Source: Alphaproteobacteria bacterium
GTDB taxonomy: Bacteria; Pseudomonadota; Alphaproteobacteria; JAUXUR01
Length of the DNA stretch: 64,000 nucleotides
Assembly: GCA_030696155.1 (NCBI GenBank)
Contig: JAUYSY010000022.1
Coordinates: 4,172 to 68,171, forward strand
Direction of reading: 5' to 3'
The position numbers and the translations under genes were made by a program. Shown here in pieces: positions 24,983-36,437 of the stretch (its first letter is position 1; each line of letters begins with the position of its first letter). Below the pieces are notes generated by a model. The model worked only from the letters and a program-made list of their open reading frames with translations. It searched no databases and was not told the DNA's origin.

Positions 24983-25843
24983 TTAAAAATTATCTTTCAA
25001 CTTAAGAAATTCAGCAATAGTTTTTCCTACAGGTTTTGGATCATCCATATGGATATGATGTCCACCTGGTAACTCATGTATCATTAGATTTTTGAGTGAT
25101 TGTGCGCGTTCTTGAAAAATCTTTTCAGGATAAGGTACACCTTGTTTAGCGCGAATAAGGCAAACTGGTGCAACAATCTCATTAAATAGTGTACGTAATT
25201 CGTCTTCATAAGGGAGCGTTGAAGCGACAGATCGTAATCGACGGTCAAAAGTCCAAACATATCCTTCTTTAGATTTTGTTGTACCCCTTAAGGCCAAAGC
25301 TTGTGAAGCTTGATAACTTATATTTCCACTTTTCATGCGTTTTTGAATGGCGGATTCTAAATCTTGAAATATTGTTCTTGGAAATTTAGTGTGGTTTATA
25401 AAATTATCAATATCAGTCAAAAGATAAGTTGTTCCCTTTTCAATAAAATCAATACGTGGTCCCAAAATATCAAGATACACTAATTTGTTTACTTGGTCTG
25501 GACACGCAATAGCTATTATTGAGGCGGATAATGATCCCAATGAATGTGCAATAATATCAAAACGATTCCAATTTAACTCTTTGATTAAATGAAGCATTAA
25601 AAAAGCATCATTTTTCCAATGTGGGAGAACGCCTTTAGGATAAGGACTCGATAATCCTGTTCCAGGAAAATCAACAGCAACCAATTGAAGATGAGGTAAA
25701 AAGGGGGCTAATAGATCAAAACTTGCGGCATTATCAAGTTTTCCATGAAGACATAAAACACGTTGAGTATTTTGAGGATTCCAGATTTTAAGTCCAATCG
25801 TAAACCCAGGGAGTTGAATTTTTCGCTCTTCACAGGGTTGCAT
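24983..25843 (-). CDS. alpha/beta-fold hydrolase
   Basis: HGKLDNAASF oxyanion region and the nucleophile elbow AHSLGS; 286 aa. Confidence 0.8.
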   Translation of the reverse strand: MQPCEERKIQLPGFTIGLKIWNPQNTQRVLCLHGKLDNAASFDLLAPFLPHLQLVAVDFPGTGLSSPYPKGVLPHWKNDAFLMLHLIKELNWNRFDIIAHSLGSLSASIIAIACPDQVNKLVYLDILGPRIDFIEKGTTYLLTDIDNFINHTKFPRTIFQDLESAIQKRMKSGNISYQASQALALRGTTKSKEGYVWTFDRRLRSVASTLPYEDELRTLFNEIVAPVCLIRAKQGVPYPEKIFQERAQSLKNLMIHELPGGHHIHMDDPKPVGKTIAEFLKLKDNF

Positions 25844-26076
25844 TATTTTCTTTCATAACTTTAATCAGATTAATTATATCATAATCAATTGATTTTAAAA
25901 GAGAGACAAAGGAATTTATTGTTGCAAATTTTAAAAAAATACGCTGAAACTTATCTAAAAATAAATATTTTTATATCAAAAATTGTTTCATTAATAACGA
26001 TTTCCCTGAACGCCTTGAATCAATGCTATGAAGACGTTCAGGATCACATGATACACACATTTGCAAACGCAGTATT

Positions 26077-26571
26077 TTATTTAGGTAAAGTTTCTAATTC
26101 TTTACAATTTGTTTTCAGCTTTCCAAATGCGCTTAAAAACGTGTCTAATTCTTGAGTTGCTGTAACTTGAGCTTTCATTGGTCTGTCAACTCTAGCGAGT
26201 ACTTTTTGATATAAATGCTCTATACTATCCATATCTTGATCAACTTTTCCTGCAAGTGTATTTAGCTTTTCAATTGATTCTAATCTTTCTTTTTCTTTAG
26301 AAGTTTTAATACCTACCACGCCAAGAACTTTATCTCTTTTTCTTTTGTCAGCAATTCTAACATTTTGAATCGCTGCATTGCAGGATTTTTTAACCTGCAT
26401 ATATTCTAATTGTACTTTTACAAATTTTGCTTTATCGGCTGCGCTTAACGCATATTTTTGATCTACTGGTGGTAAGGGTGCAATAGTTGATGGAGGTGGT
26501 GGCGTTACAGCAAAACTAGTTGTATTGATGAATAAAAGCCCAAGCAGGGATAATACGCAAATTTTTTTCAT
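26077..26571 (-). CDS. hypothetical secreted protein
   Basis: Signal peptide MKKICVLSLLGLLFINTTSFA followed by a Pro-rich stretch; two Cys residues; no recognised motif. Confidence 0.45.
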   Translation of the reverse strand: MKKICVLSLLGLLFINTTSFAVTPPPPSTIAPLPPVDQKYALSAADKAKFVKVQLEYMQVKKSCNAAIQNVRIADKRKRDKVLGVVGIKTSKEKERLESIEKLNTLAGKVDQDMDSIEHLYQKVLARVDRPMKAQVTATQELDTFLSAFGKLKTNCKELETLPK

Positions 26572-26754
26572 GATGATCTCCCATTGTTTTTTTTACTATA
26601 AGACCATGAAAATATTTACATTTACTATTCATAAAAGTGTAAACATTTAGTAGATCAAGGTATAGCTTCACTTATAATTTTAATATAAAAAAAGAAAAAA
26701 GAGAATGTTTTTATTTCATATAGAATTATTTAAATTGTAATAGGGTTGCACGAT

Positions 26755-27054
26755 TATAATCGATCAATCTACGAGACAATTTTTATTTTTATGCTAGAAA
26801 TTTGTCCACATGTCTTTGTTTTCCTGGACTCGTTGAAGCGAAGCTTCATACGTAGATCCAGGATCCAAAACAAAATCCATGCTCAAAAGAGCATGGCAAA
26901 ACTATTTAAATAACGTCATGATCTGTGATCATGATTGTTAATTGGACCCTGAATCCATGCTCGAGGCTTTGCTTCTCGCTTGTTCAGGGAAACGGCTGGA
27001 TGTTTGGCGGGTTTTAACCAAAGTTATTTTTTGTCCAGTAGATTAATCGATTAT
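26755..27054. mobile_element. composite family B element (about 300 bp) with roughly 24-bp imperfect terminal inverted repeats
   Basis: The ends ATAATCGATCAATCTACGAGACAA … TTGTCCAGTAGATTAATCGATTAT enclose a B core and internal palindromes (CATGCTCAAAAGAGCATG, CATGATCTGTGATCATG). No ORF is present. Confidence 0.55.
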
Positions 27055-34645: not shown

Positions 34646-34736
34646 TGATTTTCACCCGATTGTCACAAAAAATCAAGAGGCCCTAAATTACCTTTTTAAA
34701 AAAAGATAAAGGACCTCAGAAAATGTGTGTGGTGCG

Positions 34737-36056
34737 TTAGAGTTTATAGCGCAACCCTGCGCTTAAGATATTCACATTGGTCTTGATACGACCTTTTAAA
34801 TTACCTTTAGTTTCATGTTTTAAGTCGATGCCTGCTTTTTTAAAAAAGAGATGACCATAAGAAAGATCAAAGAAAAGTGTATCATAAATACGTGTGCTTA
34901 AACCGGTATTCAAAAATACGCGATCGCTATCAGGGATACGCGCAGTGCGATGTTCATTGGGTACTGGTGATTTATCAAATCCACCACCGACACCAAATGT
35001 CCAAGAATCGTTTAAGTAATAATGTGCACCACCTGCAACACGAAAAACACCTTTCCATTTCATAGGTGAAACGTCGTCGGGTTGAACAGGATTTTTAAAG
35101 CGAACACGTAATTCTTTTAATCGACGCCAATGCGTATACTGAACATCACTCATAATGGCCCATTTTGGGCTGAATTTATGATAAAAACCAGCAATTACAG
35201 CTTCTGGAAAGGTAATAGAGGCATTAACACCGGTATTTTTAAACATTCCCGATCGTTGGTTAATAACATCACCAATAGGGGAGCGTTTAAAGACGGCTTT
35301 ACCGCTTAATTCAGAACAAATTGTTGATCGATAGGAAAATCCAAAACGTGTATCTTCAGTCGGTTCGTATAAAACACCTGCGTTAAATCCAAAACCCCAA
35401 TCATCACCTTTAATTTTTACATAACCGTCGGCTGTTTGCGAAGCGCTTCCTAATCCTTTGCTTGCTGCAATACCACCAAAATCAATAGCACTTTCGAGTG
35501 TTGCCTCTACATATTCTGCGCTTAGTCCAACACCAAAAGTTAACTTATCATGTGCTTTATAAGCAATGGATGGATTAATGTTTAATGTAGCCATATCATT
35601 TTTGGTACCATGATAACGACCTTCCCACGTTTTTTTATAGTCAATCCCCAAACCGAAAGGTGCAAAAATACCAAATCCAGCATATAATTTATCGCTTATT
35701 TGATGACTTGCAAAAAAATTGGGAATATAAGCCGTTTTACCAGCATCCCCACCACTATCTTTTGATAAAGGTTTTAAAGAACGGCCATAAATTGTTGAGC
35801 CTTGGTCTTCATATTTCGTTGATGGTGATAAAATATGCGCACCACCCATAAATTGCGTTCCTTTAAGACGACTTAAAGCGGCAGGATTAAATACGATGGC
35901 ACTTGCATCATCAATAGAGGTTGTGGCACCTGCATAGCCAGTTTTAAAACCGCTAATACTTTGTTCAATAATAGCGATACCTGCGGCATGAGTATTTTCT
36001 ACATAACAATTTGAAATTGAAAGAAAAACAAAAGGTAAAATTCGTTTAAGTGACAT
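34737..36056 (-). CDS. fadL: outer-membrane long-chain fatty-acid transporter (FadL/TodX family)
   Basis: Signal peptide, a 14-strand beta-barrel-like alternating pattern, and a C-terminal aromatic residue (…RYKL); it lies directly upstream of fadD. Confidence 0.8.
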   Translation of the reverse strand: MSLKRILPFVFLSISNCYVENTHAAGIAIIEQSISGFKTGYAGATTSIDDASAIVFNPAALSRLKGTQFMGGAHILSPSTKYEDQGSTIYGRSLKPLSKDSGGDAGKTAYIPNFFASHQISDKLYAGFGIFAPFGLGIDYKKTWEGRYHGTKNDMATLNINPSIAYKAHDKLTFGVGLSAEYVEATLESAIDFGGIAASKGLGSASQTADGYVKIKGDDWGFGFNAGVLYEPTEDTRFGFSYRSTICSELSGKAVFKRSPIGDVINQRSGMFKNTGVNASITFPEAVIAGFYHKFSPKWAIMSDVQYTHWRRLKELRVRFKNPVQPDDVSPMKWKGVFRVAGGAHYYLNDSWTFGVGGGFDKSPVPNEHRTARIPDSDRVFLNTGLSTRIYDTLFFDLSYGHLFFKKAGIDLKHETKGNLKGRIKTNVNILSAGLRYKL

Positions 36057-36239
36057 TGATAAAATCCTGCGTTTTTTAAGATCTGTAAAATTATCGCATA
36101 ATTTTAAATTCTGTCAATAAAGCCACCCATAAAACGACAACTTATGTTACTTATTACCCACATCATTACAATTTTTAAAAGATTTTCTATAGACGCTGTT
36201 AACATTTCATATTGACAACCAAATGTAGCTTATCTGAAC

Positions 36240-36437
36240 TTGAGTTTAGATTTTGAGATTGTTGCACCGATTTGTCTTATTCGTGCCAAACGAGGTGTAC
36301 CTTATCCTGAAAAAATTTTTCAAGAACGCGCACAATCACTTAAGAATCTAACCATTCACGAATTGCCAGGTGGTCATCATATCCATATGGATGATCCAAA
36401 GCCTGTAGCAACACTTATTTCAGCGTTTTTAACCTAA
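36240..36437 (+). pseudogene. fragment duplicating the C-terminus of the alpha/beta hydrolase gene at 24983..25843
   Basis: The translation IVAPICLIRAKRGVPYPEKIFQERAQSLKNLTIHELPGGHHIHMDDPKPV is about 90% identical to the last roughly 60 aa of the intact hydrolase; there is no N-terminal part and it is in inverted orientation. Confidence 0.65.

Follow-up and report, generated by a model that had tools for sequence, protein, structure and literature searches.

Inversions in bacterial chromosomes are known from the scars at their breakpoints: collinear flanks, a reversed inside, reciprocal breakpoints, a split gene that leaves a pseudogene fragment and a reversed skew. The same features occur in a stretch of 64,000 nucleotides (nt), the window, from contig JAUYSY010000022.1 of a metagenome-assembled genome (MAG). 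In the window, the 3′ end of an alpha/beta-hydrolase gene recurs as an inverted orphan copy on the far side of a block of fatty acid degradation genes. The two inverted hydrolase 3′ ends very probably record a recent inversion of about 11.1 kb that is specific to this lineage, with the orphan as the ancestral 3′ end. The scar departs from typical bacterial ones in its size and position, being 11 kb, local and not symmetric about the origin. No insertion sequences or rRNA repeats bound the ancestral segment, and the gene at the breakpoint is intact again, with a 3′ end from another allele.

Staggered-break inversions with flanking inverted duplications were described in Drosophila (Ranz et al. 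2007, PMC1885836). The window shares with them an ancestrally single-copy sequence that is now an inverted duplicate at both ends of the segment. Unlike in the flies, the duplicate stems from one breakpoint only, and the copies differ by 13–16%, one of them being a foreign allele. Homology-facilitated illegitimate recombination during natural transformation is a process set out in PMC3240628. A one-sided anchor, here the 5′ part of the hydrolase gene, and a new 3′ end with downstream DNA joined to unrelated sequence correspond to the structure of the left junction. In contrast to that process, the joint lies among repeat elements, which may have offered a second homologous anchor, and here we infer the process. 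Shufflons, as in R64, the Gin/Cin/Hin-type tail-fibre systems and phase-variable hsdS, also have inverted repeats within a coding sequence (CDS) and a promoterless alternative 3′ cassette in the opposite orientation. Unlike shufflons, the window has no site-specific recombinase among the genes scanned, its repeats are long and diverged, the arrangement is not conserved in relatives and the segment contains a whole 10-kb operon.

As a rearrangement scar, the feature is ordinary and lineage-specific; its history can be read unusually well. It is no new kind of system. It is a small inversion in an uncultured Legionella-like bacterium, with breakpoints placed to a few bases and a polarity given by two independent lines. 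The case shows rearrangement and allelic recombination jointly making mosaic genes. The GC skew at third codon positions (GC3 skew) can flag such a recent inversion from a single genome.

The reversed block and its breakpoints

The inverted duplicate of the hydrolase 3′ end noted in a preliminary description of the window is real. A repeat search found two arms, 25007–25181 and 36254–36428, of 175 nt and 86% complementarity, 11,072 nt apart. Blastn between the arms gave 166 nt with 87.3% identity (E=1e-54), and alignment over all 184 nt to the orphan stop gave 84% (155/184). The identity given before, about 90%, was slightly high, while the extent of about the last 60 codons was correct. Pairwise alignment showed that the similarity begins abruptly at 36254 and fades just ahead of the stop codons; the longest exact run is about 26 nt. 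The translated orphan matches hydrolase residues 222–280 at 51 of 59 positions. Blastn detected no third copy of the arms or their surroundings in the 64-kb window. A wider repeat family as the source of the pair, which the preliminary description had named as a possible objection, was thereby ruled out, with two copies only.

The genes between the arms are those listed before. The Pfam domain scan covered open reading frames (ORFs) of at least 180 amino acids (aa) at 11.8–46.2 kb and small ORFs beside the repeats. It identified an acyl-CoA dehydrogenase (ACAD), a 3HCDH/ECH protein, a thiolase, an AMP-binding FadD and a FadL/Toluene_X porin; a 164-aa ORF had no Pfam match. All genes from the hydrolase through fadL are on the minus strand. 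The features are:

24386–24491, no strand: left flank, intergenic, upstream of a 258-aa gene; collinear with 3147–3251 of the sister contig L008 (93%); ends at breakpoint 1
24492–24982, no strand: lineage-specific DNA at the left junction, without counterpart in L008
24983–25843, minus: resident alpha/beta-hydrolase, full-length, 286 aa, two-allele mosaic (Pfam and alignment)
24983–25181, minus: left repeat arm, 3′ end of the resident gene, codons 222–286; diverged, non-orthologous to the sister 3′ end
25182–36250, minus: probable inverted ancestral segment, from hydrolase codons 1–221 through fadL plus about 190 nt upstream of fadL
26765–27044, no strand: repeat-element insertion between the 164-aa ORF and ACAD, 280 nt versus 85 nt in L008 (12544–12628)
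36057–36250, minus: fadL upstream (promoter) region, moved with the block; outer end is breakpoint 1
36254–36437, plus: right repeat arm, the orphan, probably ancestral hydrolase codons 222–281 and stop; inside the mechanical ORF 36240–36437
36438–36761, plus: probable ancestral downstream flank of the hydrolase, attached to the orphan; collinear with relatives
36559–37015, minus: ParD-like antitoxin and 62-aa partner (Pfam ParD_like, E=5e-13)

Within the lineage-specific DNA, 24530–24885 consists mostly of copies of short interspersed repeats that are also present elsewhere in the window. The part 24530–24605 matches 39477–39553, 26814–26864 and 5307–5376, and 24642–24700 matches 59470–59529. 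Repeat copies also lie at 26795–26955, inside the insertion 26765–27044.

The window was compared with L008 (GCA_030680745.1, JAUXUR010000048.1), a sister genome 95–97% identical to the window, with L009, L013, L003, L004, L010 and L002, each of which covers certain junctions, and with L011 and L012. L010 and L002 come from one JGI sample and are more distant from the window than the other relatives. Blastn aligned L008 and the window as follows:

L008 248–2256, window 21434–23442, same orientation, 95.9%
L008 2363–3251, window 23605–24491, same orientation, 92%
L008 3298–4737, window 36176–34737, reversed, 94.6%
L008 4881–12543, window 34722–27045, reversed, 95.3%
L008 12629–14377, window 26764–25016, reversed, 96.8%
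L008 14212–14737, window 36254–36761, same orientation, 87.9%

Both flanks are collinear with L008, and the inner 11 kb or so is reverse-complemented. The gene order in L008 is a 630-aa gene and a 259-aa gene on the minus strand, then fadL, fadD, thiolase, 3HCDH/ECH, ACAD, the 164-aa ORF and a 281-aa hydrolase on the plus strand, and a ParD-like gene on the minus strand. This ParD-like gene directly follows the hydrolase and is the same neighbour as in the right flank of the window. The other relatives agree with the layout of L008 at whichever junction each covers. In L009 and L013, the 259-aa gene (minus) is beside fadL (plus). In L010, a left-flank gene is collinear with window 18196–18945 and fadL is reversed. 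L003 and L004 have ACAD, the hydrolase and then DNA homologous to window 36438–36606, with L003 9998–10366 corresponding to window 36254–36606 at 89%. In L002, the hydrolase is followed by DNA matching window 36941–37057. A second hydrolase fragment or orphan is absent from L008, L009, L013, L003, L004, L010 and L002. Scanning a genome collection with FadL revealed only a 33%-identical Francisellaceae MAG and no species-level relatives. JGI metagenome scans with the orphan peptide and FadL gave no match, in a collection that apparently lacks the samples of L002, L010 and L011.

The synteny comparison proposed before thus shows collinear flanks and a block in the opposite orientation in relatives. 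The preliminary description had seen in the repeat pair the footprint expected from an inversion. This is supported by the synteny with five related contigs, the reciprocal breakpoints and the reversed GC3 skew of the block. It had also named conserved synteny in relatives without the duplication as an argument to the contrary. This is no refutation: the unduplicated relatives carry the block reversed. The ancestral layout was very likely 258-aa gene (minus), fadL–fadD–thiolase–3HCDH/ECH–ACAD–164-aa ORF–hydrolase (plus) and ParD-like gene (minus).

Breakpoint 1 is intergenic and lies some 195 nt ahead of fadL. In L008, the DNA that separates the 259-aa gene from fadL corresponds to two separate parts of the window: 3147–3251 is found at window 24386–24491 and 3258–3417 at window 36249–36057. 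In the second part, window 36057–36176 corresponds to L008 3417–3298 and window 36210–36249 to L008 3297–3258, with an insertion of 33 nt in the window in between. By inspection of the sequences, the break is close to L008 3255/3256; no loss or duplication is clear, and about 6 nt at most are unaccounted for. A short duplication, 'CCTAACC', at this breakpoint has a 16-nt spacer between the copies and was judged to be due to chance. Breakpoint 2 cuts the hydrolase gene between codons 221 and 222 (25181/25182 and 36254). The orphan begins at 36254–36255, directly abutting the DNA upstream of fadL, and at that same codon, near 25181, the resident sequence takes on a different character. The two breakpoints are reciprocal, with a margin of a few bases.

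L001 and L007 are Logan contigs from an independent assembly of the window's own sample (run SRR13727522). L007 is 100% identical to window 29216–38688 and runs through fadL, the orphan and the ParD-like flank. The right junction is not an assembly artefact because this independent assembly is identical across it. L001 is 100% identical to window 24677–26782.

The orientation in the window is derived and recent, as outgroup orientation and GC3 skew agree. The most distant relative (L010/L002) shares the orientation of L008. GC3 skew was calculated for ORFs of at least 200 aa with the plus strand as frame of reference. For ACAD, 3HCDH/ECH, thiolase, fadD and fadL it ranges from +0.10 to +0.33 (mean +0.175). 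For the other 29 ORFs, the mean is −0.24, with negative values in almost all on either strand; 11 other minus-strand genes have a mean of −0.18. The five fad genes differ from the 29 ORFs (Mann–Whitney p ~6e-4) and from the 11 minus-strand genes (p ~9e-4). As the skew is reversed in comparison to the rest of the window, the block carries the mutational signature of the opposite strand.

The cumulative GC skew falls monotonically over all 64 kb, with no switch near dnaA (dnaA and dnaN at 50597–53206). The replication origin is apparently not adjacent to dnaA. By skew, the minus strand is the leading strand; the orientation of dnaA–dnaN and of the dcw genes (ddl, ftsQ, ftsA and ftsZ, 11.8–16.9 kb) suggests the opposite.

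Gene content varies within the block. The window, L008, L011 and L012 share the 164-aa ORF. In L003 and L004, the hydrolase follows 48 nt after ACAD (L003 9288–9336 versus window 25844–27097), without this secreted hypothetical ORF. The mechanical 789-aa ORF of 3HCDH/ECH overlaps the thiolase stop by 49 nt (31641–31689). Gene callers on the identical DNA of L007 report a 772-aa product, which probably puts the true start near 31638.

Origin of the two hydrolase ends

The orphan is closest to the gene ends of the relatives, with 180 of 184 identical positions to the L003 3′ end and 172/178 to that of L008 (97–98%). Its downstream flank continues the downstream sequence of the relatives. On these two grounds the orphan is very probably the orthologous, original hydrolase 3′ end, left in place beside its original flank. 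The resident gene is a mosaic. In comparison to L008, it has 470 of 480 identical positions (98%) in columns 181–660 of the CDS alignment and 157/180 (87%) in columns 661–840. The allele switch lies at about column 655, codon ~220. Orthologous codons 1–221 are joined in frame to a diverged 3′ end of the 'KLKDNF' type, which is named after its terminal residues and is also known from other metagenomes.

The diverged part has two tracts. Columns 665–783 (window 25179–25061) contain 14 differences that are not shared with L011, L008 or L003; a few are common to L002 or L005. Twelve of the 14 are synonymous. Between resident and orphan, 13 synonymous and 3 non-synonymous codon differences were counted in codons 222–272. 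This ratio points to a resident end derived from a long-diverged functional gene rather than to decay, and indicates long divergence under purifying selection. The second tract starts at column 784 (window 25060), takes in the stop codon and a further 97 nt (to 24886), and is 100% identical to L011 over 175 nt. L011 is a JGI contig (JGI 3300055294); its hydrolase, P0139, ends in 'KLKDNF', as does the hydrolase of the window. Downstream of the stop codon, window 24886–24982 equals L011 1942–2038 with 100% identity and is the natural downstream sequence of the 'KLKDNF'-tail allele. The tail also occurs in the more distant P0002/L012, where the downstream DNA resembles that of L003, which suggests that the tail type is an old segregating allele. 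The preliminary description had taken the pair for two copies of a single sequence. It had missed that the orphan is the ortholog, that the resident 3′ end is a diverged allele starting exactly at the orphan boundary and that the relatives have no earlier inverted repeat to drive an inversion.

The resident protein matches Abhydrolase_6 with 38 bits (cut-off 26.3) and Abhydrolase_1 with 33.6 bits (cut-off 25.8). The closest solved structure is 7al5, a 'probable hydrolase' (E=1e-37), with which the AHSLG and GGHHIH motifs align. AHSLG, the nucleophile elbow, is at residues ~99–103. The conserved GGHHIH is at ~261–266, inside the duplicated segment. From general knowledge of the fold, we take the catalytic histidine to be located at GGHHIH. 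The orphan holds the C-terminal GGHHIH without the nucleophile AHSLG. As nucleophile and GGHHIH would be on separate pieces, a hydrolase cut at codon 221 is expected to be inactive, and the orphan alone would be no enzyme. The orphan has two substitutions of its own, V227I and Q234R, both non-synonymous. They fit a relaxed constraint on the orphan, with tiny numbers. Because the nucleophile elbow is absent and the private changes are all non-synonymous, the orphan can be regarded as a non-functional relic, and ORF 36240–36437 should be treated as a pseudogene fragment in annotation.

Among named homologues, the best matches to the hydrolase are Legionella proteins with ~60% identity; the closest overall are metagenomic proteins with 85–91%. 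The FadL and the hydrolase of the window are identical to P0132 and P0141, which share one 68.8-kb MAG contig at NCBI. NCBI labels the proteins of the MAG (MDP3531968.1, MDP3531974.1) as 'Alphaproteobacteria bacterium', in contrast to the Legionella proteins as best hydrolase homologues. On this sequence comparison, the taxonomic label of the bin is probably wrong.

In another JGI metagenome, the L011-type hydrolase is present as products of 208 aa and 76 aa (P0137 and P0140), with 'STLPYEDELRT' missing. This suggests a decaying gene in that population; both products probably lie on one contig, as the longest contig of each is 1361 nt.

Possible routes to the present arrangement

The preferred route is an illegitimate inversion followed by repair with DNA of a related strain. 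It is put forward tentatively, at less than an even chance. An illegitimate inversion, not mediated by repeats, may have cut the hydrolase ahead of the region of the C-terminal catalytic histidine. The gene would then have been restored by recombination with DNA of a related strain with the 'KLKDNF' tail. Homology in the 5′ part of the hydrolase and in the genes upstream of it could have anchored this repair. The other end would have been closed by a non-homologous or repeat-element joint, as in homology-facilitated illegitimate recombination. The route explains the coincidence of the allele switch with the breakpoint. It gives selection a role and fits a recent exchange with the L011 lineage.

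Several observations weigh against the inversion or against this route to it. A donor of columns 665–783 was not found in any collection searched. In L011, the only other carrier of both this tail and its downstream DNA, a further 114 nt follow the shared tract; blastn and tblastx gave no match for them. The first codon of the repeat is GAG (Glu) in resident and orphan only; it is GCG in all seven other alleles examined. A blunt break with a foreign patch does not predict this shared GAG, which calls for a staggered overlap of a few bases, subsequent conversion or chance. At 24491/24492, the left junction lies beside repeat elements and is backed by the window assembly only, as L001 ends at 24677. 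An exact look-up of the orphan ORF matched the source sample only, and the event rests on one genome, a MAG. We infer the order of events; it was not observed.

In bacteria, inversions are most often caused by recombination between inverted repeats. A repeat-mediated origin would start with a foreign inverted fragment of a diverged hydrolase 3′ end, from codon 222 on, inserted with its downstream DNA upstream of fadL. A RecA-dependent flip would follow, with the crossover in the first ~15 nt. The orphan boundary and the allele switch of the resident gene would coincide at 25181 and 36254, heteroduplex repair at the crossover would account for the GAG common to both arms, and the gene would never have been disrupted. 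This origin is nevertheless doubtful. The genomes with the ancestral orientation have no inverted repeat at both ends: a hydrolase fragment upstream of fadL is missing in L008, L009, L013 and the 193 nt available in L003. The initial insertion would have been anchor-less and doubly illegitimate and would have landed 11 kb from the hydrolase gene. With 84–87% identity and a longest exact run of ~26 nt, the arms are a poor substrate for RecA, and the crossover must sit at the extreme inner edge of the repeat.

A duplicative inversion, in which staggered breaks copied the hydrolase 3′ end to both junctions and the allele of another strain later overwrote one arm, is unlikely. All relatives with the ancestral order have a single copy of the duplicated sequence, which is the signature reported by Ranz et al. 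(2007, PMC1885836). The gene would not have been broken, and a lineage-specific GAG predating the event would naturally be found in both arms. The 175-nt tract identical to L011 shows a recent allelic exchange at the resident arm. On the other side, the arms differ by 13–16% from within ~12 nt of the repeat boundary, so that the later import would have begun almost precisely at the edge of the duplicated stretch. At the breakpoint upstream of fadL, no clear duplication of 3 nt or more was seen. Duplicative inversions are documented in flies and, to our knowledge, not in bacteria.

The diverged arms might still recombine and the block flip back and forth without a recombinase, which is very unlikely. 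If it were true, each flip would swap the C-terminal segment of the hydrolase, including the region of the catalytic histidine, between a 'SAFLT' and a 'KLKDNF' tail, and reverse the fad operon. A metabolic enzyme would then have a shufflon-like cassette switch that works without a recombinase. A programmed or recurrent shufflon-like switch that exchanges the hydrolase C-terminus between two cassettes is highly improbable. The repeats are inside the coding sequence, and either orientation would yield a full-length hydrolase with a different tail. Yet no recombinase is nearby among the ORFs scanned, the arms are long and diverged instead of short and identical, and the private changes of the orphan are all non-synonymous. 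The reversed GC3 skew shows that the block has long stayed in one orientation. Nor is the architecture conserved: the sister genomes and other relatives lack the orphan, and the exact orphan ORF was present in one sample only.

It is equally improbable that the orientation of the window is ancestral and that of the relatives derived, or that the MAG is misassembled. The source is indeed a MAG, and repeat elements adjoin the left junction. However, the other orientation, without an orphan, is found in no fewer than four separate lineages, among them the most distant one, L010/L002, and the GC3 skew of the block is opposite to that of the genes around it. Across the right junction, the independent assembly has the same sequence. 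An assembler would not confuse arms that divergent, and a chimeric join would not give reciprocal breakpoints.

A mobile fad island inserted into a once-duplicated hydrolase gene, the second option of the preliminary description, or a composite transposon bounded by the repeats is scarcely credible: inverted repeats do bound the block and short interspersed repeats are nearby, but the block, with the hydrolase as last gene, is at the same locus with the same flanks in all close relatives, none of them duplicated, the repeat belongs to no wider family, and no transposase, integrase or recombinase had a Pfam match among the ORFs scanned (at least 180 aa at 11.8–46.2 kb, and small ORFs beside the repeats), so that synteny and the lack of mobility genes leave it unsupported.

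Neighbouring genes and repeats

The ParD-like gene overlaps the 62-aa ORF, which has no Pfam match, by 11 nt. They are probably a type II toxin–antitoxin pair. The region downstream of the hydrolase varies among relatives, with a 363-aa gene in L003 and L004 and genes of 137 aa and 262 aa in L002. The 363-aa gene of L003 was considered as a homologue of the paralogues in the left flank of the window and rejected (BLASTP E=1.7).

These are three adjacent paralogues on the minus strand (19082–20944, 21383–23314 and 23609–24385). They have an N-terminal domain of ~250 aa in common and a signal-peptide-like start. Their C-termini differ: one has a RamC_N match, another a weak kinase-like match and the third none. 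None of the three is present in L010 between a 232-aa gene and fadL. The three resemble a family of secreted or effector-like proteins that expanded recently.

Two families of short interspersed repeats resemble miniature inverted-repeat transposable elements (MITEs). One has copies at 24530–24609, 26795–26955, 39384–39556 and 5304–5376, the other at 24642–24789 and 59434–59567. These MITE-like repeats differ by strain: the insertion at 26765–27044 distinguishes the window from L008, and L008 has a copy at 2266–2345, between the 630-aa and 259-aa genes. Copies are also located between fadD and thiolase in L013 and L010. A third family of ~130 nt has at least five copies, at 11616–11742, 14996–15119, 29119–29252, 48540–48660 and 53457–53601. 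It matches the intergenic region between 3HCDH and ACAD of relatives (L003 7119–7272 and L008 10328–10466).

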